Assembly: GCF_000014265.1 (NCBI RefSeq)
Contig: NC_008312.1
Span: 5,460,001 to 5,492,000 of the forward strand
Length of the DNA: 32,000 nt
Source: Trichodesmium erythraeum IMS101
GTDB lineage: Bacteria; Cyanobacteriota; Cyanobacteriia; Cyanobacteriales; Microcoleaceae
Reading direction: 5' to 3'
Position 1 is the first letter of the stretch; each line of letters opens with the position of its first letter. Shown here one piece after another: positions 2 through 31,328 of the stretch. A program made the translations under genes and the position numbers. The notes under the pieces are model-generated. The model searched no databases and was not told the origin of the DNA. It was given only the letters and a program-made list of their open reading frames with translations.

Positions 2-2536
2 CAACATAATAGAGATAATAGAATCAAGGGGCAAGAGAAAGATTATCAAATGATGCTTCGCACGCGAAACCCCGGAGGTTTTATTCCGCCACAACTTTTT
101 CTTACTCTAAATAAGTTGTCTAACGAGTATGGTAATGGAACACTTCGTGTGACAACTAGACAAGGTTTTCAGTTGCACGGAGTATTAAAGAAAAATTTAA
201 AAAAAGTTATATCATCGATCATAAAAAGTATGGGTTCGACTCTAGGGGCTTGTGGAGATATAAACAGAAATGTCATGTCTCCACCAGCTCCCTATAAAAA
301 TCGTCCTGAGTACGAATATGCTAAAGATTATGCTAATAAAATAGCAGATTTATTAACACCACAAACAGGAGCATATTACGAAATTTGGTTGGATGGAGAA
401 AAAGTAATTAGTGCACAAGAAGCTTCTGAAGTAAAAGTGGCAAGACTTCGTAATGGTAATGGTACGATATTCCCTAATAGTGAAGAACCTATCTATGGTA
501 CTCACTATATGCCAAGAAAATTTAAGTGTGCTGTAACGGTTCCAGGAGATAACTCTATAGATCTGTATACTCAGGATGTTAGTTTGGTTGTAATTACCAA
601 TGAAGTAGGTGAATTAGAAGGATTTAATGTTCTAGCAGGTGGTGGTCTAGGTCGTACTCATAGAAAGGAAGAAACTTTTCCTTGTTTAGCCCAAGAAATT
701 GGATATGTTACTAAAGAAGATATATTTGATTTTATGAAGGCTATAGTGGCTACTCAAAGAGATTATGGTGATCGCAGTAACCGTCGGCATGCTAGAATGA
801 AATATTTACTACATGATTGGGGAGTCGAAAAATTTAAGGCGAAGTTGATAGAATATTTTGGTAAATCCATTGCTCCCTTCAAACCTCTACCAGAATGGAA
901 GTATTTGGACTTTTTGGGATGGCATGAACAAGGGGATGGAAGGCTATTTTTAGGAATTTCTGTCGAAAATGGACGTGTTAAAGATGAAGATTCATTTCAA
1001 CTAAAAACAGCTCTGCGAAAAATAGTTGACTTGTTTAAGCTACCTATGCTTTTAACTGCTAATCACAACATTATTCTCTACGAAATTAAACCACAGCAAC
1101 AACAAGCAGTAGAACAAATTCTGAATAAACACGGTATTAGCACAGAAAAAAATATTGATCCCTTAGTACGTTATAGTATGGCCTGTCCTGCTTTACCTAC
1201 TTGTGGACTAGCAATTACAGAATCAGAAAGGACCTTACCTGGCATACTGGGACAAATTAGGTTATTGTTGGACAAGGTGGGACTAGGACAAGAGCATTTT
1301 GTAGTTAGAATGACAGGATGTCCCAATGGCTGTGCTAGACCCTATATGGCGGAATTAGGATTTGTCGGTAGTGCTGCTGATTCTTATCAGATTTGGTTAG
1401 GGGGCTCACCAAACCAAACACGACTGGCAAAACCTTATATCGATAAACTGCATATCAATAATCTGGAAGCTGAGTTGGAAAGAATTTTTATTTATTTCAA
1501 GCAACAACGGCAACCAGATGAGAGTTTCGGTGATTTTTGTAATCGTGTCGGTATTGAAGCCATCCGTAAGTTTGTAACCAACTATCAATCTAGTTTCTCG
1601 ATGAATACAGATATTAACAATTCAAGTTTGACCTCAATTAATTCTGAAAAGAATATTCCAATCGTTACAGATGTTACTGAGACAACTCCAGACACTAAAT
1701 CTCAAGAAGAATCGACAAGTAAAAATCTGGAAAATAATCAGGAAGTGATTCCAATGAATTCTCCAGTAACTCAATCAACTAATATGACTCAAACGACAAC
1801 GACTTCAACAACAATTAGTGAAGCTCAACCTCTAAGTACTCATCAAACTCCAAAAACTCCTACTTTTAGTAGTGATACTAATACAACAATATCCACACCT
1901 TCTACTTTAGGTAAACAGGAAGGTCAGCCTACTGTGGAAACTACACCTTCTACTTCAGTTCAACAGGAAGATAAGCTTACTGTGGAAACTACTTCAGGTC
2001 AACAGGAAGGTCAGACTACTGTGGAACCTACAATACCTTCTACTTCAGGTCAACAGGAAGGTCAGACTACTGTGGAACCTACAATACCTTCTACTTCAGG
2101 TCAACAGGAAGGTCAGCCTACTGGGGAGCCTACAATACCTTCTACTTTAGGTAAACAGGAAGGTCAGCCTACTGTGGAAACTACAATTCCTAATTTAGAT
2201 AAACAGGAAGCTCAGCCTAATAGGGAGTCTACAATATCTGATAATTTAGATAAACAGGAAGCTCAGCCTACTAGTGAGTCTACAATATCTGCTAATTTAG
2301 ATCAACAGGAAGCTCAGCCTATAGGTCAACTAGAATCCTCTCCAGATAAGCCTAAAGATACTAGCAAAATGCGACATCGGGTTAGTGTGAGGGATGAAAT
2401 CTATACCAAGTTAAAAGAGGAGTCTAAGCGCCAGGGTAAACCAGTAGTTCAATTAGCAACTGAAGCTATTGCAGAATATCTGGAAAAAATTAGGAAAAAT
2501 GAAAGCTTAACTACTACTAATGAAACTAATTTTTAG
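2..2536 (+). CDS. sir: Assimilatory ferredoxin-sulfite reductase, 5' end outside the window, with a ~310-aa non-canonical C-terminal tail
   Basis: The frame is open from nt 2 ([16 protein letters not shown] precedes the ATG at 50), so the Met in the ORF track is internal. Siroheme/4Fe-4S cysteine clusters CPALPTCG and [11 protein letters not shown] are present, plus the family signatures [10 protein letters not shown] and [11 protein letters not shown]. The canonical enzyme should end near nt ~1600, but the ORF continues to 2536. Confidence 0.9.
1908..2340 (+). repeat. In-frame 51-nt (17-aa) tandem repeats, about 8.5 units, inside the sir tail
   Basis: Units begin at 1908, 1959 (short unit), 1997, 2048, 2099, 2150, 2201, 2252 and 2303. 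Units 1997-2047 and 2048-2098 are identical and encode [17 protein letters not shown]. Confidence 0.9.
2369..2533 (+). other. Ribbon-helix-helix (CopG/Arc/MetJ-like) module at the extreme C-terminus of the sir ORF
   Basis: [45 protein letters not shown] fits the RHH pattern: a short basic beta-strand ([11 protein letters not shown]), helix 1 ([11 protein letters not shown]), then helix 2 ending in the typical A-I-x-E-Y-L-E. This is pattern recognition only, with no profile search. Confidence 0.55.
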
Positions 2537-3129
2537 GAAAATATTTAGCTATCAGCTCTTGGCCATTAGCTTTGGATAAAATGAGGTTTTGGTTTTATGG
2601 CAATTTTGAAAAACCATTAGCTAAAATGCTCAGGTATGGATGGAATTACATCCGAATACTTCTCCTATCTATAGCCAATGTGTTTTTGTAATTCACAGAT
2701 CAAGGTTGAATGCTGAGATTTTTAGCTTTCTCTGGGATAAATTCTACGTTTGAAAATAAGTCTGTGGGATAAATCCATACAAAAATTTTTAGGCATTTAA
2801 GGAGCTAATAACTAAAACTGAGTAATTGAAAAAATAGATACCTTTAAGTTAAGACAAGTTAGCTGTATTAACAATCATAAAAACTAACTTCAGGACTACT
2901 GAAGAGTATTATCAAATTAGATATTACCGGTAAAATACTTTAAGGAAAAATAAATAAATGGAAATAGCTTTGTTACTATTTCCATTTATTGAAAAAATTA
3001 TGGGTTTTCTTTTGATTTGATGTTAAAAATGTCAATAAAACTCTTCCACGCTTCAGCCGTTTTTTACTGTTTCTGTTTCAGATTAAGGTTCTCAAGTAGC
3101 CAAATTGTAATTATTAAATTTTTTAAAGA

Positions 3130-3906
3130 ATGGCTGATTTGCAAAGATTAGCGATCGCTCCCCAGCAAATTGATCAACAACAGGTTTTTTTAACTGTTGA
3201 ACAACAGCATTATTTACGACGAGTGTTACGACTAGGGGTGGGAGATAAATTTATTGTAATGGATGGCGAGGGTAAATGGTGGTTAGCTAAACTTACACCA
3301 GATATTTCTATAAAGACTGAGTTAATCGCTATTTTAGAACAAGAAATTGCAATTCAAAATGAATTACCAATAGAAATAACTCTAATCTCTGCTTTACCTA
3401 AAGGAAATAGTTTTGATGAGGTTGTTCGACAAAGTACGGAATTAGGGATAACTCATATTTTCCCAGTTATTAGTTCTAGAACTGTGCTGAAACCTAGTCC
3501 TCAAAAATTAAAAAGGTGGCAAAAAATTGCTACTGAAGCTGCAGAACAATCAGAGCGTCAAGTAGTTCCAAAAATTAGAGAAACTGTAGAATATTCTGTG
3601 GCTTTATCATTATTTGAGAAGCAAAATTTATTTACTAATTATCATAAATATATATGTGTTGCTCGTAATAATTATCCTCTTTTACTTGAGAGTTTATTGG
3701 ATAATCAAAAACTGGAATCAATAGTGATTGCTATAGGTCCAGAAGGGGGTTGGACTAAGGGCGAAATAGAAGCAGCGATCGCTATAGGTTTTCAAGCAGT
3801 TTCTCTTGGTAAGCGTATTTTAAGGGGGGTTACAGCTCCTTTAGTTGCATTATCTCTAGTGGCTGCTGTATTGGAAAGAAAAAGGTATAGCACTAATTGC
3901 AGTTAA
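3130..3906 (+). CDS. rsmE: 16S rRNA (uracil1498-N3)-methyltransferase RsmE
   Basis: N-terminal LQRLAI..QQ..L..EQQHYLRRVLRLGVGDKF..DGEG.WW.A.L and the C-terminal SPOUT knot IGPEGGWTKGEIEAAIAIGFQAVSLGKRILR are characteristic of RsmE/DUF558. Confidence 0.88.
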   Translation: MADLQRLAIAPQQIDQQQVFLTVEQQHYLRRVLRLGVGDKFIVMDGEGKWWLAKLTPDISIKTELIAILEQEIAIQNELPIEITLISALPKGNSFDEVVRQSTELGITHIFPVISSRTVLKPSPQKLKRWQKIATEAAEQSERQVVPKIRETVEYSVALSLFEKQNLFTNYHKYICVARNNYPLLLESLLDNQKLESIVIAIGPEGGWTKGEIEAAIAIGFQAVSLGKRILRGVTAPLVALSLVAAVLERKRYSTNCS

Positions 3907-7006: not shown

Positions 7007-8129
7007 TATAGCAATCCTAAATAGGTCGCAACAGATATAATAGTAAGAATAACATCTCCAGTCAAAATACAAAGTAATGAATATTATAGATGAACTAGAC
7101 GATTTTATCAATCACACATGCATAGTCAAAAGAAATAAAAAGAGCCTTAGCTGTAAAAATGATTTTGTCGGGAAAATCCTATCATGAAGTCAAAGAATTA
7201 TTAAATGTAACTCAGCAGTTTAGAAAGCGAATGGAAAAACCAAGCACTGTTTCATGGCAAGTGAAAGTTTAAAGCTTCAATTATATTGGAACACAAGGTT
7301 ACTTAAAGGCCGAAGAAAAAGAGCAAATAATTGAGTGGTTGAGGGCACAAAATTACCTAAGATTGTCAGATTTACAAAAATATTTAAAGAAGCAATATGA
7401 TGTGGTTTTTGAGTCTAATCAAAGTTATTATAACTTACTCAAAGAAGCAGGAATAACTTGGAAAAAAACTCAAAAAAAAATCCCGCTAAAAATGATGAAT
7501 TAGTGAAAGCAAAAAAAAAAGAAATAGAGGAATTATTGACTAAATGGCAACCAGAAATAGAATCTGAAAATCTTACAGTGTTTATGATTGATGAATGTCA
7601 TCTATTATGGGGTGATCTATATAGCTATACTTGGGGAAGAACAGATAAAAGAATAGAAATTCCGATAAAAAAATGAAAAAGAAAGACAAACTTATTATGG
7701 AGCCAATTATTATCAAACTAAGGAATTTATTGTGCAAGAATATAAGAATGGAAATACTGAAAAAAAGAATGAATTTGTTAAATATTTACAAGAGCAAAGA
7801 CCAGGAAAAAGATTGGCAATATTTGGGGACGGTGCAACTTATCATAACTCTCAAGAATTTCGAGAATATCTGATGTTAATTAATCAAGATTTACCTGAAG
7901 AAGAATGGTTGATAAATTGTACGCTCATTTGCCCCAAATGCTCCTGAACAAAACCCTGTTGAAGATATTTGGTTGCAAACTAAAAGTTTCATCAGACAAT
8001 TTTATCATCTTTGCAGTTCTTTTAAAGTAGTTAAGTGGCTATTTAAGTTTTTTGCAGATGGTCAAATATTTGATTTCTCAAAGCTTTTTCAGTATGGAAT
8101 TTTGCCACAATCTATTTAGGATTGCTATA
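7007..8129 (+). mobile_element. Degenerate IS630/Tc1-mariner-family insertion sequence with terminal inverted repeats and TA flanks
   Basis: The left end tagcaatcctaaatag (7009-7024) is the exact reverse complement of the right end ctatttaggattgcta (8112-8127). Both ends are flanked by TA (7007-7008, 8128-8129), the IS630 target duplication. The interior encodes a broken DDE transposase. Confidence 0.85.
7078..8118 (+). pseudogene. IS630-family DDE transposase, multiply frameshifted
   Basis: Pieces in three frames join into a typical IS630 transposase: ...QSYYNLLKEAGITWKKTQKK / NPAKNDELVKAKKKEIEELL...FMIDECHLLWGD / NEKERQTYYGA.NYYQTKEF / AIFGDGATYHNSQEF / FAPNAPEQNPVEDIWLQTK. Frame breaks occur at the A9 run 7472-7480, at the A7 run 7667-7673 and near 7925. 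There is an in-frame stop near 7270. Confidence 0.85.
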
Positions 8130-11839: not shown

Positions 11840-12277
11840 TTAAACTGCTATAATATCGCCAACTTCTTTATGGTCATTACAGCCAAAAATAGCTTCTTGA
11901 TGACAATAATATTTGAATTCTAGCAAGTTATAAAATGGATCTTCAAGGAAAAAAGTACGATGTTCCAAAGGAGAATTTGTAAACCTCCGCTTAGGTTGCT
12001 GATAGAATTTTAATTTATTTTTTTGAGCACGTTCTAATAAAGCTTCCCAGTCACTTTCTAGGCTAAAAACTAAACCAAAATGTCTGGGGTAAATTCCTTT
12101 TTGTGGTTCTAAAGTTTCTTTAGCAATATGAGCAACAATTTGATTACCATAAAGATTTAAAATCACTGAATTTCGAGATTCTCGCCCAACTTTACAACCT
12201 AAACCATTGCTATAGAATTCTTTCGTTTTGGTAATATTATTCACCGGAAAGGCTAAATGAAAAAGAACTTGATTCAT
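11840..12277 (-). CDS. VOC (glyoxalase/bleomycin-resistance/dioxygenase) family protein, the only full-length copy
   Basis: 145 aa. The HLAFPV..I..TKEFY...LGCKVGR start and the C-terminal FLEDPFYNLLEF segment fit the VOC beta-alpha-beta-beta-beta fold pattern. AAGGAA lies 6 nt upstream of the ATG. Confidence 0.8.
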   Translation of the reverse strand: MNQVLFHLAFPVNNITKTKEFYSNGLGCKVGRESRNSVILNLYGNQIVAHIAKETLEPQKGIYPRHFGLVFSLESDWEALLERAQKNKLKFYQQPKRRFTNSPLEHRTFFLEDPFYNLLEFKYYCHQEAIFGCNDHKEVGDIIAV

Positions 12278-12377
12278 AGTTATTTCCTTGTAATGTGTAA
12301 GTATTATTTTCTCTGGTAAATATTAAGTTAAAATGACAATAGATGTTTTTAGCGAGTAGATATAATGTTATCTAATA

Positions 12378-12710
12378 TTAATTCTGTAAATCCCTGGTTA
12401 AAGGAGAATTTGTAAACCTCCGCTTAGGTTGCTGATAGAATTTTAATTTATTTTTTTGAGCACGTTCTAATAAAGCTTCCCAGTCACTTTCTAGGCTAAA
12501 AACTAAACCAAAATGTCTGGGGTAAATTCCTTTTTGTGGTTCTAAAGTTTCTTTAGCAATATGAGCAACAATTTGATTACCATAAAGATTTAAAATCACT
12601 GAATTTCGAGATTCTCGCCCAACTTTACAACCTAAACCATTGCTATAGAATTCTTTCGTTTTGGTAATATTATTCGCCGGAAAGGCTAAATGAAAAAGAA
12701 CTTGATTCAT
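12378..12710 (-). pseudogene. Truncated VOC copy (codons 1-104 plus 6 junction-derived codons LTRDLQN*), array unit 2
   Basis: Identical to the full-length gene over 104 codons except Val12Ala (G at 12676). The tail is read from the antisense of the DUF92 gene start. It lacks the C-terminal 41 aa. Confidence 0.85.
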
Positions 12711-12810
12711 AGTTATTTCCTTGTAATGTGTAAGTATTATTTTCTCTGGTAAATATTAAGTTAAAATGACAATAGATGTTTTTAGCGAGTAGATATAATG
12801 TTATCTAATA

Positions 12811-13143
12811 TTAATTCTGTAAATCCCTGGTTAAAGGAGAATTTGTAAACCTCCGCTTAGGTTGCTGATAGAATTTTAATTTATTTTTTTGAGCACGTTC
12901 TAATAAAGCTTCCCAGTCACTTTCTAGGCTAAAAACTAAACCAAAATGTCTGGGGTAAATTCCTTTTTGTGGTTCTAAAGTTTCTTTAGCAATATGAGCA
13001 ACAATTTGATTACCATAAAGATTTAAAATCACTGAATTTCGAGATTCTCGCCCAACTTTACAACCTAAACCATTGCTATAGAATTCTTTCGTTTTGGTAA
13101 TATTATTCACCGGAAAGGCTAAATGAAAAAGAACTTGATTCAT
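12811..13143 (-). pseudogene. Truncated VOC copy, array unit 3
   Basis: 110-aa ORF identical in its first 104 aa to 11840-12277, with the same junction tail. Confidence 0.85.
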
Positions 13144-13243
13144 AGTTATTTCCTTGTAATGTGTAAGTATTATTTTCTCTGGTAAATATTAAGTTAAAAT
13201 GACAATAGATGTTTTTAGCGAGTAGATATAATGTTATCTAATA

Positions 13244-13576
13244 TTAATTCTGTAAATCCCTGGTTAAAGGAGAATTTGTAAACCTCCGCTTAGGTTGCTG
13301 ATAGAATTTTAATTTATTTTTTTGAGCACGTTCTAATAAAGCTTCCCAGTCACTTTCTAGGCTAAAAACTAAACCAAAATGTCTGGGGTAAATTCCTTTT
13401 TGTGGTTCTAAAGTTTCTTTAGCAATATGAGCAACAATTTGATTACCATAAAGATTTAAAATCACTGAATTTCGAGATTCTCGCCCAACTTTACAACCTA
13501 AACCATTGCTATAGAATTCTTTCGTTTTGGTAATATTATTCACCGGAAAGGCTAAATGAAAAAGAACTTGATTCAT
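13244..13576 (-). pseudogene. Truncated VOC copy, array unit 4
   Basis: 110-aa ORF identical in its first 104 aa to 11840-12277, with the same junction tail. Confidence 0.85.
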
Positions 13577-13676
13577 AGTTATTTCCTTGTAATGTGTAAG
13601 TATTATTTTCTCTGGTAAATATTAAGTTAAAATGACAATAGATGTTTTCAGCGAGTAGATATAATGTTATCTAATA

Positions 13677-14009
13677 TTAATTCTGTAAATCCCTGGTTAA
13701 AGGAGAATTTGTAAACCTCCGCTTAGGTTGTTGATAGAATTTTAATTTATTTTTTTGAGCACGTTCTAATAAAGCTTCCCAGTCACTTTCTAGGCTAAAA
13801 ACTAAACCAAAATGTCTGGGGTAAATTCCTTTTTGTGGTTCTAAAGTTTCTTTAGCAATATGAGCAACAATTTGATTACCATAAAGATTTAAAATCACTG
13901 AATTTCGAGATTCTCGCCCAACTTTACAACCTAAACCATTGCTATAGAATTCTTTCGTTTTGGTAATATTATTCACCGGAAAGGCTAAATGAAAAAGAAC
14001 TTGATTCAT
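13677..14009 (-). pseudogene. Truncated VOC copy, array unit 5
   Basis: 110-aa ORF identical in its first 104 aa, with a synonymous C-to-T change at 13731. Confidence 0.85.
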
Positions 14010-14109
14010 AGTTATTTCCTTGTAATGTGTAAGTATTATTTTCTCTGGTAAATATTAAGTTAAAATGACAATAGATGTTTTTAGCGAGTAGATATAATGT
14101 TATCTAATA

Positions 14110-14442
14110 TTAATTCTGTAAATCCCTGGTTAAAGGAGAATTTGTAAACCTCCGCTTAGGTTGTTGATAGAATTTTAATTTATTTTTTTGAGCACGTTCT
14201 AATAAAGCTTCCCAGTCACTTTCTAGGCTAAAAACTAAACCAAAATGTCTGGGGTAAATTCCTTTTTGTGGTTCTAAAGTTTCTTTAGCAATATGAGCAA
14301 CAATTTGATTACCATAAAGATTTAAAATCACTGAATTTCGAGATTCTCGCCCAACTTTACAACCTAAACCATTGCTATAGAATTCTTTCGTTTTGGTAAT
14401 ATTATTCACCGGAAAGGCTAAATGAAAAAGAACTTGATTCAT
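14110..14442 (-). pseudogene. Truncated VOC copy, array unit 6
   Basis: 110-aa ORF identical in its first 104 aa, with a synonymous T at 14164. Confidence 0.85.
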
Positions 14443-14542
14443 AGTTATTTCCTTGTAATGTGTAAGTATTATTTTCTCTGGTAAATATTAAGTTAAAATG
14501 ACAATAGATGTTTTTAGCGAGTAGATATAATGTTATCTAATA

Positions 14543-14875
14543 TTAATTCTGTAAATCCCTGGTTAAAGGAGAATTTGTAAACCTCCGCTTAGGTTGTTGA
14601 TAGAATTTTAATTTATTTTTTTGAGCACGTTCTAATAAAGCTTCCCAGTCACTTTCTAGGCTAAAAACTAAACCAAAATGTCTGGGGTAAATTCCTTTTT
14701 GTGGTTCTAAAGTTTCTTTAGCAATATGAGCAACAATTTGATTACCATAAAGATTTAAAATCACTGAATTTCGAGATTCTCGCCCAACTTTACAACCTAA
14801 ACCATTGCTATAGAATTCTTTCGTTTTGGTAATATTATTCACCGGAAAGGCTAAATGAAAAAGAACTTGATTCAT
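14543..14875 (-). pseudogene. Truncated VOC copy, array unit 7 (adjacent to the intact DUF92 gene)
   Basis: 110-aa ORF identical in its first 104 aa, with a synonymous T at 14597. Confidence 0.85.
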
Positions 14876-23723: not shown

Positions 23724-24596
23724 ATGACTATTCTTCAAGTTTCTTTAATAGGATTAGCAGCTATTTATATATCTGGTTTTATGTTGCTAAGATTACTACA
23801 AAACCGATTGATATTTGAACCTAAATCATTGTTGTTAGGGACTCCTGCTACTTTTAATCTTCCTTATGAGGAAGTTTTGCTATCAGTTGCAACTTCTAAA
23901 AATCAGACAGAAAAAATATTTGGTTGGTGGATTCCCAAAACAGAACCCACTGCTAAAGTTATTCTATTCTTACATGGGGCTAGTGGTAACATGGCAGCTC
24001 AAGAAAAAAGTTGCAATCTTGAGCGTGTAGTAAAACTATATCAGTTAGGATTTTCGGTATTTATGATTGATTACCGGGGATACGGTAATAGTACAGGCAG
24101 ATTTCCAACCGAAGCGACAGTTTATGAAGATGCTTCAATAGCTTGGAATTATTTAACTCAAGAAAAAGGGTTTTCACCAAAAGAAATTTTTATTTATGGA
24201 TATTCTCTTGGAGGAGCGATCGCTGTTAATCTCTGCCTACAACAACCAAAAGCAGCAGGACTAATAGCTGAAAGTTGTTTCACTTGTATCAAAGACATGG
24301 CTAAACACAGATATAAAATCCAGATATTTCCCCTGAAATTACTGATCACTCAAAAATTTGACTTCATTAACAAAGTAAAATCAATAAAAGTACCAGTCTT
24401 ATTTATTCATGGTATGAAAGATCAAGTTATACCTATAACGATGAGTGAAAGATTATTTGCTGCTGCACCGGAGCCGAAAAAACTGCTGTTAATGCCAAAT
24501 GCAGGACATAATAATTTGGCTCAGGTAGATAGCGATCGCTATCTAAAAGCATTGCAGGAATTCTTTACTAATCACTTAATAAAATATAGAGTATGA
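23724..24596 (+). CDS. Alpha/beta hydrolase (ABHD13/BEM46-like serine hydrolase) with an N-terminal membrane anchor
   Basis: LFLHGASGN, nucleophile elbow GYSLGG, FIHGMKDQVIP and GHNN form a Ser-Asp-His triad layout. Confidence 0.85.
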   Translation: MTILQVSLIGLAAIYISGFMLLRLLQNRLIFEPKSLLLGTPATFNLPYEEVLLSVATSKNQTEKIFGWWIPKTEPTAKVILFLHGASGNMAAQEKSCNLERVVKLYQLGFSVFMIDYRGYGNSTGRFPTEATVYEDASIAWNYLTQEKGFSPKEIFIYGYSLGGAIAVNLCLQQPKAAGLIAESCFTCIKDMAKHRYKIQIFPLKLLITQKFDFINKVKSIKVPVLFIHGMKDQVIPITMSERLFAAAPEPKKLLLMPNAGHNNLAQVDSDRYLKALQEFFTNHLIKYRV

Positions 24597-27043
24597 ATCA
24601 ACAAAATCCTATCCCTAACATTCCAGCCATATCCTGGAATCGCCCCATTGGTCTTGATTGGGACAAACCTTACACAGTCCGTTATAGTAGTAATATTGAT
24701 GATGGCCCATGGCACGGAATGCCTCTGGGAGGTTTCGGTGCAGGTGCCACTGGTCGTTCCCCCCGGGGGGATTTTAATCTTTGGCATCTTGACGGTGGGG
24801 AGCACATTTATCAAAATCTGCCCGCCTGTCAATTTAGCGTTTTTGAAGAAACAAAAGGACAGAAACAAGCTTATGCTTTATCTACCGAATTACCCACTGA
24901 TGGTAGTCTATCTGCTTGGCAGTGGTATCCTCGGGAAAAAGCCGGGCTCAAGACTGGCACTTATCACGCTCTTTACCCCCGCAGCTGGTTTGTTTATGAG
25001 AATGTATTTACTGCACAATTAAGTTGTGAACAATTTTCCCCAATTTTGGCAGGTAACTATCAAGAAACCAGTTATCCGATCGCTATATTTGAATGGACTG
25101 CCCATAATCCCACAGATGAAGCAATTACACTTAGCATAATGCTAAGTTGGCAAAATACTGTTGGTTGGTTTACCAATTCTGTGAAAACACCAGAAGTGAG
25201 AGTGCGAGATGATGGTAGCCCAGTTTATGAATACAAACCTCGGTGGGGAGAGAGTACAGACAACTTTAACTTATTAGTAGAAGATTTTCACCGTATTGGT
25301 TGCACTATGACCAAATTAAGTATTGCCGACGAACCTGCAGAAGGAGAGGGGCAAATGGCGATCGCGACTTTTATCAATGCCGGCATGGAAGTTTTCTATC
25401 ATACAAGGTGGAACCCTACTGGTACTGGGGAGGATATCTGGCATTACTTTGCTCTAGATGGCTCTCTCATAGATGAAGAAAACGAACTACCAGCAACTGA
25501 GGGAGAACAAATTGGTGTGGCTATATCAGTTCGTTTTACTATCAGACCAGGGAAAAACAGGAAAATTCCTTTTTTTTTAGTTTGGGATTTACCTGTGACT
25601 GACTTTGGTAATGGGGTTTCATATTACCGCCGTTATACAGATTTTTATGGTCGCAATGGCAAAAATGCCTGGTCGATGATTCGTACTGCCATGAAGCATT
25701 ATCAAACTTGGCGGGAAAATATTGAAGCTTGGCAAAATCCGATTTTGCAACGGGAAGATTTGCCTAATTGGTTGAAAATGGCTTTGTTGAATGAACTTTA
25801 TGACCTCACCAGTGGTGGAACTATTTGGGCGGCTGCTAGCGATAGCGCTCCTTACGGTCAGTTTGCTGTTCTGGAATGTCTTGATTATCGTTGGTATGAG
25901 AGTTTGGATGTTAGGTTGTATGGTTCTTTTGGGTTGTTAATATTGTGGCCAGAGTTGGAAAAGTCTGTTTTAGTTGCGTTTGCGCGAGCAGTTTCGACAG
26001 CGGATGATACACTGAGAATTATTGGTTACAATCAAGTGTCGGCAGTGAGAAAGGTTGCTGGAGCTACTCCCCATGACTTGGGTGCACCGAATGAGCATCC
26101 CTGGGAAATGACAAATTATACCAGTTATCAGGATTGTAATCAATGGAAGGATTTATCTAGTGATTTTGTATTGCAGGTATATCGAGATTTTTTGTTGACT
26201 GGTGCAGATGATTATGAGTTTCTCTGGCAGTCTTGGTCTGCTATTACGGAAACTCTAGCATATCTTAAGGGTTTTGACAAAGATAATGATGGCATTCCTG
26301 AAAATGAGGGAGCGCCTGACCAAACTTTTGATGATTGGCAGTTGCGGGGTGTGAGTGCATATTGTGGTGGACTATGGCTGGCTGCACTTGAGGCAGCGAT
26401 CGCTATTGGGAAAGTTTTAATTGAGCATCCTAGGGAAATTCCTTATTACCCGCCTAAGGGTTTCTATTCTGAGGTTGATAAAAATTCTGTAGATGCAATT
26501 AATAATCAGGTTTATTTGTATCAAGGTTGGTTAAAAAAAGGATTGCCTATTTATCAAGAAAAGTTATGGAATGGGGAATATTATCGTTTGGATAGTGAGA
26601 GTAATTCGGAAGTAGTAATGGCTGATCAATTATCGGGTCAATTTTATGCCAAGCTGTTAAATTTGGAGGATATTGTCCCTGCTGAATGTGCTTTGTCTGC
26701 TTTAAAAACTGTCTATAATTCTTGTTTTAAAAACTTTCATAATGGCAAGTTTGGTGCGGCAAATGGGGTGTTACCTGATGGTTCTCCAGAGAATCCTAAT
26801 GCTACTCATCCTTTAGAGGTTTGGACAGGAATTAATTTTGGTTTAGCGGCTTTTATGGTGCAAATTGGTATGAAAAAAGAAGCTCTGGAAATAACTGAGG
26901 TAGTTGTGGGACAAATTTATGAAAATGGTTTACAATTCCGCACTCCAGAAGCTATTACAGTAATGGGTACTTTTAGAGCTAGTCATTATTTAAGGGCAAT
27001 GGCAATTTGGGCAATTTATTTAGTCATAGAAGCAAAAAGGTGA
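24593..27043 (+). CDS. GH116-family beta-glucosidase (GBA2-type non-lysosomal glucosylceramidase / bile-acid beta-glucosidase homologue)
   Basis: N-terminal GMPLGGFGAGATGRSPRGDFNLWHL and YHALYPRSWF, then a C-terminal (alpha/alpha)6-type region with TPHDLGAP and DQTFDDW...GVSAYCGGLWLAAL. Length is ~816 aa. Confidence 0.85.
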   Translation: MNQQNPIPNIPAISWNRPIGLDWDKPYTVRYSSNIDDGPWHGMPLGGFGAGATGRSPRGDFNLWHLDGGEHIYQNLPACQFSVFEETKGQKQAYALSTELPTDGSLSAWQWYPREKAGLKTGTYHALYPRSWFVYENVFTAQLSCEQFSPILAGNYQETSYPIAIFEWTAHNPTDEAITLSIMLSWQNTVGWFTNSVKTPEVRVRDDGSPVYEYKPRWGESTDNFNLLVEDFHRIGCTMTKLSIADEPAEGEGQMAIATFINAGMEVFYHTRWNPTGTGEDIWHYFALDGSLIDEENELPATEGEQIGVAISVRFTIRPGKNRKIPFFLVWDLPVTDFGNGVSYYRRYTDFYGRNGKNAWSMIRTAMKHYQTWRENIEAWQNPILQREDLPNWLKMALLNELYDLTSGGTIWAAASDSAPYGQFAVLECLDYRWYESLDVRLYGSFGLLILWPELEKSVLVAFARAVSTADDTLRIIGYNQVSAVRKVAGATPHDLGAPNEHPWEMTNYTSYQDCNQWKDLSSDFVLQVYRDFLLTGADDYEFLWQSWSAITETLAYLKGFDKDNDGIPENEGAPDQTFDDWQLRGVSAYCGGLWLAALEAAIAIGKVLIEHPREIPYYPPKGFYSEVDKNSVDAINNQVYLYQGWLKKGLPIYQEKLWNGEYYRLDSESNSEVVMADQLSGQFYAKLLNLEDIVPAECALSALKTVYNSCFKNFHNGKFGAANGVLPDGSPENPNATHPLEVWTGINFGLAAFMVQIGMKKEALEITEVVVGQIYENGLQFRTPEAITVMGTFRASHYLRAMAIWAIYLVIEAKR

Positions 27044-28976: not shown

Positions 28977-31328
28977 ATGATGGAATGGTTAATTACTTGG
29001 GGAGCTGGTAAAGCAGTTGAGTTTCTTGCTGAGAAAGTTATCGGAGAGTTAGTTAAGGGTGCTGCTGAAGACTACGTTAAAGATTTTTTTAAGCAATGTT
29101 TTTCTAATGCTATTAGCAACATAACAGAGAAAGAACCTTTGCAAAAAGCTATGGCAGAAGCAACTAAAGAATTTTTAGAATTAGTACAAAAAGAATTAAA
29201 AGAAGTTGGCGTGGATGAAAGTCAATTAGAGCAGTATATTAAACCCTTAGAAAAGTTTATTAAAAATAAATCAGTTTTGGCAATTTTGGGTAGTGCTTTT
29301 GAGGAAAATATAACTCTAGATATTAAGCAATTAGCTACTATTGGGAATCAAATAAACCCATCTTTTTTACCAGATGAATTTGACTGGGACTTAGTTATCA
29401 GGCAATACCAGAGAAAAGTCAAAAAGATTATTCAAAAATCAGATGAATTACGGCAAATATTAGATTCCAAATCTCTGGAAGAACTGGCAAGTCAAACTTC
29501 AGTCAAACCCGAATTTAACTTAATAAAACATCAAGAGGGAATTCGAGAAAGATATGGCAACCTCAGATTAGACAGTTTAGATACTAAAGGTCTCGCTTAT
29601 AACATCGAATTATTGAAAATTTTTATTCCTCAAAAAGTACGGAAAATTCAAGAATTTATACCTCAAATTCATCTTATGCCCAAACAATATCAACAGCAAT
29701 TAAAAGAGACTGGGCAGTTAGAAACAGCACTTTCTCAAGAACAATTAGAAAGTTTGGAGCGCCAATATTTTGAACAGCAGACTCGTTCAGTTTTAGAATT
29801 ACAAAAAAACAAAGAATATCAATATTTAGTAATCTTAGGTGACCCTGGTTCTGGTAAGTCTACTTTATTAAGATATATAGCTCTTGAGTGGACAAAAATA
29901 TTACCCAAAGATTTACCTTTTCATCCAATTCCTATACTAATTGAACTGCAAACTTATATGGGTAATTATAATGAAAAAAAGTGTGAAAATTTTCTAGATT
30001 TCCTAGAAAAAGGTAGTGGAGTTATTTGTCATATCTCTCAAAAGGAACTTCATAACAAATTAAAAAAGGGTGAAGCTATTGTCATGTTTGATGGGTTAGA
30101 TGAAGTTTTCGACCCTGAAAAACGAGAAAGGGTAATAACTGATATTCATCGGTTTACTAATGACTATAAAAAGGTGCGAGTTATTGTTACTTCGCGGGTA
30201 ATAGGTTATAAATTACAAAGACTCCGAGATGCTGAATTTTGTCATTTTATGTTGCAAGATTTAGATGAGGAACAAATTAATTATTTTATTAAAAATTGGC
30301 ATGAGCTTACTTACAAAAGTGAAGAAGAAGAGACAAAAAAGTGGAGAATGGGACGGTTAAAACAAGCAATTAAGGATTTTTCAGCTATTAAAGAAATCGC
30401 TAGAAATCCTCTATTATTAACTATGATGGCTATTATGAATCGTAATCAAGAACTTCCAAAATATAAAGCTGACCTCTATAATAATTCTTCAGAACTTTTG
30501 TTAAAGTGGGATGTAGAAAGGGCGCTTCGTAGAGAAGGGATGGAACAAATTAATCTTGACTCTATAACAATTAAAGACAAGCAGGAAATATTGCGCCGGA
30601 TGGCTAAGTTTATGCAGGAAAATAAAAAAGGTTTTGCTGGCAATTTAATCTCTGAGAATAATGTAGAAATAATTATCAAAGAATATCTAGATTTTCTAGG
30701 TTTTAAGGATGCAATAATTATAGCTAGAGCCCTGCTTAAAGAGTTACGCAATCGGAATTTTATTTTATGTTTTGTTGGGGGTGGATATTATGCTTTTGTA
30801 CATCGAACTTTTTTAGAATATTTCTGTGCCTGGAGTTTTGTTTGGGAGTTTAAGGAGACACAAACTATAAACATAAATCAGTTGATAAATGATGTTTTTG
30901 AGAACCATTGGCGGGATGAAAATTGGCATGAAATTTTGCGATTAATTGCAGGAAAGATTAATGCTAATTTTGTGGGAAAAATTATTGGTTATTTGATGGA
31001 AAAAGATGGGGAAGAAGAAAAATTTATGAATTTATTTTTGGCGGGGAAATGTTTATTTGAAGTTGAACACCCTCAGCATATTGATGAGATAGCTTCTGAG
31101 TTATTGAATAGGTTAAAAGCTTTGACAAATTATAATCTTGATCATATTGACTATGATAGTAAAATTCGTACTCAAGCTGTAAAACTTGTGGCAGAAACTT
31201 GGAGGGATAATCGTTTAAATGAGGCTAATATTAAGACTTGGCTCGATAATATTGCAGAATCTCATAGTGATTTGAATGTACGGGAGAGAGCAAAAGAAGA
31301 GTTAGCTACTAGATGGAAAAATGACTGA
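28977..31328 (+). CDS. NACHT-family STAND NTPase with a ~280-aa uncharacterised helical N-terminal region and a helical-repeat C-terminus
   Basis: Walker A GDPGSGKST (nt 29838-29864), Walker B IVMFDGLDEV (from nt 30078), VIVTSR sensor region and NPLLLTMMA winged-helix motif. The C-terminal NVRERAKEELA is HEAT-like. Confidence 0.8.
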   Translation: MMEWLITWGAGKAVEFLAEKVIGELVKGAAEDYVKDFFKQCFSNAISNITEKEPLQKAMAEATKEFLELVQKELKEVGVDESQLEQYIKPLEKFIKNKSVLAILGSAFEENITLDIKQLATIGNQINPSFLPDEFDWDLVIRQYQRKVKKIIQKSDELRQILDSKSLEELASQTSVKPEFNLIKHQEGIRERYGNLRLDSLDTKGLAYNIELLKIFIPQKVRKIQEFIPQIHLMPKQYQQQLKETGQLETALSQEQLESLERQYFEQQTRSVLELQKNKEYQYLVILGDPGSGKSTLLRYIALEWTKILPKDLPFHPIPILIELQTYMGNYNEKKCENFLDFLEKGSGVICHISQKELHNKLKKGEAIVMFDGLDEVFDPEKRERVITDIHRFTNDYKKVRVIVTSRVIGYKLQRLRDAEFCHFMLQDLDEEQINYFIKNWHELTYKSEEEETKKWRMGRLKQAIKDFSAIKEIARNPLLLTMMAIMNRNQELPKYKADLYNNSSELLLKWDVERALRREGMEQINLDSITIKDKQEILRRMAKFMQENKKGFAGNLISENNVEIIIKEYLDFLGFKDAIIIARALLKELRNRNFILCFVGGGYYAFVHRTFLEYFCAWSFVWEFKETQTININQLINDVFENHWRDENWHEILRLIAGKINANFVGKIIGYLMEKDGEEEKFMNLFLAGKCLFEVEHPQHIDEIASELLNRLKALTNYNLDHIDYDSKIRTQAVKLVAETWRDNRLNEANIKTWLDNIAESHSDLNVRERAKEELATRWKND

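Follow-up and report, generated by a model that had tools for sequence, protein, structure and literature searches.

The ribbon-helix-helix (RHH) proteins include stand-alone regulators and antitoxins. CopG, Arc, ParG, Omega, AvtR and proteins of the VapB/MazE type have in common a fold signature and a basic ribbon, RHH folds are obligate intertwined dimers, and the stand-alone regulators and antitoxins of this kind are small, separately translated and often encoded together with a toxin or a partition ATPase. An RHH module covalently joined to a metabolic redox enzyme is found in PutA, in which this domain (2jxg) is N-terminal and autoregulation through the put operators has been demonstrated. 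In the ferredoxin-dependent sulfite reductases (Fd-SiR) of plants, a C-terminally encoded peptide (CEP) has been described in the nucleoid-type SiRs and modelled as an RHH fold (Kobayashi et al. 2016, PMC4898807). According to the same authors, the bean CEP moves the Arabidopsis SiR to chloroplast nucleoids, and CEPs are also present in cyanobacterial and red-algal SiRs, with an endosymbiont origin. The present work deals with the sir gene of Trichodesmium erythraeum IMS101, located at the left end of a stretch of 32,000 nucleotides (contig NC_008312.1, positions 5,460,001 to 5,492,000 of the forward strand), which as a whole is called the window. The product of this gene (Sir) is very probably a single polypeptide of about 902 aa that consists of an ordinary Sir, an acidic disordered spacer and a C-terminal RHH module, the CEP. 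The Trichodesmium Sir is a lineage-specific variant of a known, published enzyme-RHH architecture, and what is unusual in it is the spacer.

Architecture of the sir gene product

The sir frame runs without a stop from position 2 of the window up to the stop codon at 2534-2536 (forward strand). The 5' end of the gene, about 58 codons, is located beyond the left window edge, and the window covers the 3' 94% of the gene. A full open reading frame (ORF) of 902 aa, with the N-terminus MIIPSQISTPKEAKPSKLEG, was found in two 99.8%-identical contigs (L083 and L088). Pfam analysis of the N-terminal part of the protein revealed the domains NIR_SIR (E=5.8e-48) and NIR_SIR_ferr (E=7.5e-26), each in two stretches, and the motifs ACPALPTC and TGCPNGC, with the cysteines of the 4Fe-4S/sirohaem cluster, were seen in the translation. 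As judged from these sequence features, Sir belongs to the ferredoxin-dependent assimilatory sulfite reductases. The alignment with the maize SiR (5h8v, E=4.9e-189) stops at query residue 531, which corresponds to about nt 1594, and therefore the initial annotation of this DNA, made from the sequence alone, was right in considering the catalytic domain complete by about nt 1600 and in placing its boundary at 1595.

The same annotation had pointed out that the frame stays open long after the catalytic domain. This was borne out, since 258 codons without any stop (1595-2368) precede the module; the other five frames contain 14-37 stops each over this distance. When the whole stretch 1595-2368 was shuffled, 0 of 20000 sequences stayed open, and shuffling of its non-repeat part alone (1595-1896) gave an open fraction of 0.00065.

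The gene was also found in independent assemblies. An rsmE product of identical sequence is encoded on many marine metagenome contigs, TARA included, and in three NCBI Trichodesmium-type assemblies, and one of these metagenome contigs is 99.8% identical to the window over 7 kb. The sir ORF was intact in all ten independent assemblies of the same oceanic Trichodesmium population, with 902 aa in four of them and 885 aa in the other six, a difference of exactly one 51-nt unit of the repeats described below. This difference may be a real variable number of tandem repeats, or it may come from short-read collapse of near-identical neighbouring units. The frame is likewise intact in the nearest named relatives, Trichodesmium sp. 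MAG_R03 (L001, 88-89% identity, stop-to-stop frame of 864 codons) and Microcoleaceae MO_207.B10 (L002, 82-86% identity, 847 codons). Because the ORF is intact in ten assemblies and in these two related species, a missed stop or a frameshift near nt 1600 is excluded. The gene tables of three NCBI assemblies (L087, L090 and L094, about 699-3407) do not include sir, though the 902-aa ORF is intact in them; a gene so rich in repeats may have been dropped or flagged by the annotation. The absence of stops, the spacing of the repeats in multiples of 3 and the intact ORF in ten assemblies and two related species are, together with the lack of a Met at the start of the module in most orthologues, the reasons for considering the product a single polypeptide.

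The last 55 aa of the protein begin at the ATG at 2369, and the RHH pattern that had been noticed in them was recovered by profile and structure comparisons. With the Trichodesmium copy alone, Pfam gave RHH_3 (E=0.0035, 17.7 bits against a cut-off of 21.6) and RHH_5 (E=0.022), both below threshold, and with the aligned homologues RHH_5 was found in 16 of 16 sequences (best E=2.1e-5) and RHH_3 in 12 of 16 (best E=6.7e-6). A profile built from 57 modules was compared with solved structures. The top match was AvtR (E=5.1e-6), followed by E73 (0.0032) and then by ParG, ORF56, 56B, Mnt, Omega, CopG-family proteins, the PutA DNA-binding domain and MazE6; the 16 matches listed are mostly RHH proteins, the weak exceptions being a de novo design, ZnO7 and SUMO2. 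The model of the module obtained by AF2 with an alignment comprises an extended segment (residues 11-20, pLDDT 83) and two helices (residues 21-34 and 38-60, pLDDT 92-94). As the model consists of a single chain, DSSP assigned no ribbon strand. Almost all Foldseek neighbours of this model are RHH proteins, among them ORF56, CdbA, SvtR, CopG and Arc, with target-normalised TM values of 0.6-0.76.

In the putative strand, the alternation R-H-R-V-S-V-R places the two valines to one side and R, S and R to the other. The second arginine of RHR (R11) is invariant in the 57 modules, in which the pattern reads R-x-R-x-S/N/G-x-R/K. By profile and by the strand-helix-helix layout predicted in the model, the module belongs to the RHH (CopG/Arc/MetJ) superfamily. 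It also fits the description of the CEP, a stretch of about 50 aa with which an Fd-SiR ends at its C-terminus, predicted to fold as RHH and found in cyanobacterial SiRs.

The stretch between the catalytic part and the module had been described as S/T/Q/E/P-rich and of low complexity, and so it is. Counted from VTNYQSS, the linker has 265 aa, of which 73% are S/T/Q/E/P/N/G and 15% are hydrophobic, and the spacer contains 36 D+E versus 13 K+R, with a net charge of about -23. Nine tandem units were counted at 1897-2335, with spacings of 48, 39, 51, 51, 51, 48, 51 and 51 nt, all of them multiples of 3, and Tandem Repeats Finder (TRF) reported a period of 51 nt repeated 6.6 times at 1989-2321 with 88% matches. 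The repeat consensus is a unit of about 17 letters that degenerates to one of 14 letters. A motif of the clade, PxKPKDTSK, spans the junction between the repeats and the module and extends into the latter. No Pfam domain was found in the linker, the best match being HRXXH (E=0.37). In an AF2 model of the 378-aa tail, about 250 residues of the spacer had no secondary structure (pLDDT 35-48) and the flanking helices were modelled; the catalytic-domain fragment, having been excised from its surroundings, was modelled with modest confidence. The spacer is predicted to be intrinsically disordered. A literature search on Trichodesmium Sir and on sulfite reductase with ribbon-helix-helix did not find this spacer, and the relevant work retrieved was that of Kobayashi et al. 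2016 (PMC4898807). The coordinates of all these parts are given in Table 1.

Table 1. Parts of the sir gene in the window, and examples of the upstream element AATTCCGACCGGATTACCGG in other cyanobacterial loci.
Feature	Position	Strand	Basis
Sir catalytic part (ferredoxin-dependent assimilatory)	2..1594	+	Pfam NIR_SIR, NIR_SIR_ferr; maize SiR 5h8v
Spacer part 1, non-repetitive, about 100 aa, S/T/N/Q/E-rich	1595..1896	+	no Pfam domain; AF2 pLDDT 35-48
Tandem repeat array, nine in-frame units of 39-51 nt (13-17 aa)	1897..2335	+	TRF; unit count
Conserved junction, repeats to module	2336..2365	+	kept in all Trichodesmium, Okeania and Dapis relatives
RHH-type module, predicted ('CEP' of Fd-SiR)	2366..2512	+	Pfam RHH_3/RHH_5, PDB profile matches, AF2, Foldseek, dN/dS
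Module part: basic ribbon KMRHRVSVR			
Module part: helix 1	about 2393-2434		
Module part: GKP turn			
Module part: helix 2	about 2444-2512		
Clade-specific short C-terminal tail LTTTNETNF and stop	2513..2536	+	AF2 mean pLDDT 54 (residues 61-67)
Element AATTCCGACCGGATTACCGG, examples among loci L003-L057 (outside the window)	L006:2746-2765; L020:2716-2735; L045:1720-1739		

Distribution of the module and relation to the plant CEP

A genome scan yielded 80 sir loci, almost all of them cyanobacterial, and 78 of these had a complete sir 3' end. The module ends Sir in 61 of the 78 complete loci, a distribution matching that reported by Kobayashi et al. 2016. Loci with the module span Nostocales, Oscillatoriales, Microcystis, Crocosphaera, Leptolyngbya and Pseudanabaena, and the recovered loci lacking it belong to Gloeobacterales, Cyanobium, Chamaesiphon, Xenococcaceae/Hyella, some Synechococcales and all the non-cyanobacteria. 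Some of the genomes whose recovered locus lacks the module might hold another sir paralogue, as a Chamaesiphon protein (P0093) has the module.

Sir proteins of ordinary length that end in the module were found in Nostoc (638 aa), Microcoleus (662 aa) and Phormidium (659 aa). Compared with them, the C-terminal part of the catalytic domain of the Trichodesmium protein is 60-70% identical and the module is 40-66% identical, with R-x-R-[VI]-x-[VIL], LK, QGKP and EA..YL kept. The difference resides in the linker, of 8-76 aa (median 17) in the short-linker proteins and about 260 aa, with in-frame repeats, in Trichodesmium, which also has a clade-specific tail after helix 2. In most other lineages the module starts with V, I, L, S, T, K or another residue different from Met, and for this reason the module is considered to be translated as part of Sir.

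These data change what had been thought of the Trichodesmium gene in the initial annotation, where the union of enzyme and RHH module was regarded as unusual and as a possible independent route to the moonlighting role of the plant enzyme. Sir normally ends with this module, as seen in 61 of the 78 complete loci; the RHH tail is not new to the Trichodesmium gene, and the peptide that descends from it in plants is already known from the literature to target nucleoids. Since CEPs have been found in cyanobacterial SiRs and described as a shared module derived from the endosymbiont (Kobayashi et al. 2016), the plant parallel is very probably a case of homology and not of convergence. From this sequence distribution, the RHH module is very probably ancestral in the Sir of most cyanobacteria and of plastids.

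The likeness between the plant CEP and the cyanobacterial module is drawn from the published description and from seven residues encoded by the bean cloning primer, PSRHNLK, which resemble the start of the ribbon in the Nostoc Sir, KSRHRVNLK. Nucleoid targeting has been shown for the plant peptide only (bean CEP on the Arabidopsis SiR). Phosphorylation reportedly abolishes the binding of the plant SiR to DNA (Chi-Ham 2002, as cited in PMC4154389). Kobayashi et al. 2016 (PMC4898807) do not report a linker hundreds of residues long in any SiR, unlike that of the Trichodesmium protein with its disordered, tandem-repeated stretch of about 260 residues. A search of the protein database with the 57-sequence CEP profile gave seven short matches of cyanobacterial type, the word index being coarse for a profile of 49 aa. 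An exhaustive HMMER search with the 67-aa tail returned 25 representatives, almost all of them C-terminal fragments of Sir, and no plant sequences.

Expansion of the spacer in the Trichodesmium clade

The linkers of the 62 loci with a CEP have a median length of 17 aa (quartiles 10-31) and reach at most 76 aa outside the Trichodesmium clade, within which they measure 196-260 aa. Thus the comparison of orthologues revealed that the Sir-RHH union is widespread and that the long spacer is confined to this clade. In the same 62 loci every linker of at least 25 aa is acidic, and the 10 residues around the ribbon have an average charge of +3.5. The long-spacer architecture is kept in the two related species, with 291 residues after the FGDFC motif in MAG_R03 and 275 in MO_207.B10 compared with 336 in the window copy, and it is not an artefact of one strain. 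The repeat units of these species, PTVTPTNLDEE[VL]GQ and SQPVSQPSQPVSQPGQSF, differ from those of the window, and the array cannot be aligned with either of them at the DNA level. Fragments from Okeania, Dapis and another Trichodesmium contain further unit types followed by a common conserved ending. The first, non-repetitive part of the spacer (1595-1896) can be aligned within the clade and is weakly constrained.

Ratios of nonsynonymous to synonymous substitution (dN/dS) were calculated by the Nei-Gojobori method between the window and each of the two relatives, the value for the spacer being that of its alignable part. With MO_207.B10, the enzyme had a dN/dS of 0.07, the module one of 0.10 and the spacer one of 0.87. 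With MAG_R03 the values were 0.135, 0.44 and 0.50, respectively, that of the module being noisy and based on very few changes. As the ratio of the module (0.10) is close to that of the enzyme (0.07) and far from that of the spacer (0.87) in the comparison with MO_207.B10, the module is, by these rates, under strong purifying selection and hence functional. The spacer, measured in the same way, drifts almost neutrally, with constraint only on frame, disorder and acidity.

The Trichodesmium clade constitutes a natural experiment in which enzyme and module remain constrained while their separation, 17 aa in the median, has increased to about 260 aa and is still changing. Both ends being constrained while their spacing changes, the module probably acts on its own at the end of a tether and is not packed on the enzyme, and whatever it does would tolerate, or exploit, a very long leash.

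A second low-complexity expansion, independent of the former, was observed on the Sir of Prochloron didemni (L044) and on that of locus L051, with 50-63 extra residues located after the RHH module and not before it. The extension of the Prochloron protein includes tandem repeats of the NENEDKIEI type.

Proposed function of the module and alternative explanations

It is proposed that, as other RHH proteins do, the module would pair with its counterpart in another Sir chain, and that the two paired basic strands, with the R-x-R-x-S-x-R side chains outward, would form a ribbon in the major groove of DNA. Sir would thereby be dimerised and tethered to the nucleoid, by analogy with the localisation conferred by the plant CEP (Kobayashi et al. 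2016). The spacer would be a passive, flexible, negatively charged tether, free in sequence and length apart from the maintenance of frame, disorder and acidity, and it would have ballooned by slippage or by unequal recombination of the 39-51-nt units. As a whole, this explanation, which includes architecture, ancestry, tethering and the spacer as a leash, is considered the best one, with a probability of about 0.6. The single statement that DNA tethering is the function of the module in cyanobacteria, made by analogy, is somewhat short of an even chance.

Several observations weigh against this explanation. The Pfam RHH scores of the Trichodesmium copy fall under the gathering cut-offs, the monomeric AF2 model cannot display the ribbon strand and every Foldseek E-value is above 0.3, weak though expected for a fold of 45 aa. 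The one-unit difference in length between assemblies is possibly a short-read collapse and not a polymorphism. In addition, the cyanobacterial SiR is reportedly not localised in nucleoids, according to Sato et al. (2004) as cited in PMC4898807.

The alternative that best survives, although unlikely, is that the module serves mainly as a handle for dimerisation or protein interaction and has no role with DNA, the long spacer loosening its coupling to the enzyme. A fold that always exists as an intertwined dimer would suit such a handle, and a long acidic spacer beside the module would disfavour contact with DNA. The reported lack of nucleoid association of the cyanobacterial enzyme points in the same direction. 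Pure dimerisation, however, leaves unexplained that the outward positions of the ribbon are basic or polar and conserved, with R11 invariant in 57 modules, and the plant homologue does confer nucleoid localisation (PMC4898807).

Less probable still is that Sir behaves as an enzyme-repressor like PutA, with the RHH module bound to an operator at the sir promoter, transcription coupled to the state of the enzyme and the length of the spacer setting the reach between the DNA-bound module and the catalytic body. PutA provides a precedent for an RHH-enzyme fusion, and both the structural and the profile comparisons of the Sir module retrieved the DNA-binding domain of PutA. Unlike that of PutA, the Sir module is C-terminal and located behind a long disordered spacer. 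Autoregulation would also need a binding site, and a conserved element, AATTCCGACCGGATTACCGG, was found upstream of sir in other cyanobacteria. Closely preceded by a -10-like TAnAAT box, this element is situated 30-190 nt ahead of the sir ATG, contains two CCGG palindromes 8 bp apart and is present in about 35 of the 55 loci with a CEP and in 1 of the 14 without it. A metagenome scan for its 18-mer gave 19 matches in a cyanobacterial promoter context, all of them upstream of sir (17 identified by tblastn and 2 on truncated contigs). Many other matches of the 18-mer lie in unrelated coding sequence, such as that of RecQ-type helicases, and the remainder were not individually classified.

A structured RNA was considered for this leader element and rejected. 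A scan of ten sir loci with Rfam at gathering thresholds gave nothing, and RNAalifold proposed an invariant hairpin of 3 bp with zero covariation. Because it has neither an Rfam match nor covariation, the element looks like a protein-binding site, and it may be a candidate operator.

In the Trichodesmium clade (L081, L001 and L002), where the module is strongly constrained, no such candidate operator was found upstream of sir, the sir promoter being outside the window. Furthermore, the element follows phylogeny and not strictly the CEP, as it is present in a CEP-less locus (L057) and missing in the CEP-bearing loci of Microcystis, Crocosphaera and Pseudanabaena. Being absent from the Trichodesmium clade and following phylogeny, the element neither explains this locus nor proves autoregulation. 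In its full form, the proposal would be that the cyanobacterial Sir is a PutA-like bifunctional protein whose RHH module binds AATTCCGACCGGATTACCGG specifically in many lineages, the operator having been lost or changed in Trichodesmium and the tether expanded and made variable in length, which on these sequence data is improbable. If it were true, a PutA-like Sir would link transcription, or the state of the nucleoid, to sulfur assimilation, and the number of units in Trichodesmium could tune the strength or reach of the hold of the enzyme on many genome copies. The question raised is what the conserved RHH module of the cyanobacterial Sir binds, and AATTCCGACCGGATTACCGG is a candidate element.

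The initial annotation had also suggested that the last 55 codons could be a captured antitoxin gene translated from the ATG at 2369, that is, a separate RHH gene (antitoxin or CopG-like) in frame with sir only incidentally. The Met at this position is kept in the clade of Trichodesmium, Okeania and Dapis, and gene callers sometimes give fragments of 56-87 aa starting nearby on broken contigs. Nevertheless, most other lineages have a residue different from Met there and a linker of 8-76 aa without a start, and none of the species and assemblies has lost the frame along the roughly 250 codons of fast-evolving repeats. No SD-like sequence precedes 2369, and a promoter and terminator scan of 1500-3200 revealed no promoter-like site above chance inside the linker. 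Neither was a toxin ORF found downstream, since the next gene is rsmE, 590 nt away, and among ORFs of at least 40 aa in 2537-3129 (forward strand) there is a single one of 44 aa, with a TTG start and overlapping rsmE, and none of toxin size. Unlike stand-alone RHH proteins, the Sir module lacks in most taxa a separate start codon, and it is not accompanied by a partner gene. A type II antitoxin or stand-alone CopG-like gene was rejected in the lack of a general Met, an SD-like sequence and a partner gene, and its likelihood is very low.

Finally, the extension might stem from faulty assembly or sequencing, or be the tail of a decaying pseudogene, but this has a negligible likelihood and was rejected. 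In its favour, the repeats break many assemblies, so that many database entries of Sir are partial, and the end of one fragment (P0012) looks like translated adapter. Against it, the same result came from ten independent assemblies, made from different samples and with different assemblers, the orthologues of other species keep the architecture intact and the module is under purifying selection. The C-terminus of P0012, a Sir fragment in the protein database, is CLLYTSPSPRDA, which resembles a translated sequencing adapter and which we take to be probably an artefact.

Other features of the window

Other observations were made in the window outside sir. An insertion of 1.1 kb (7007-8129) is missing from metagenome contigs that are otherwise 99.7-99.8% identical. 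It is bounded by perfect 18-nt terminal inverted repeats, TATAGCAATCCTAAATAG, and contains a transposase frame in pieces, one of them with HTH_33; it resembles a decayed element of the IS630/Tc1 type, inserted at TA. Two genes on the forward strand are unrelated to Sir; that at 28977-31328 encodes a NACHT/STAND NTPase whose N-terminal domain is NNH2, and that at 24593-27043 a protein of the GH116 beta-glucosidase type. On the reverse strand, seven tandem genes of the glyoxalase/VOC family (PF00903) form an unusual head-to-tail array at 11840-14875, six of them of 110 aa at a strict period of 433 bp and one of 145 aa.

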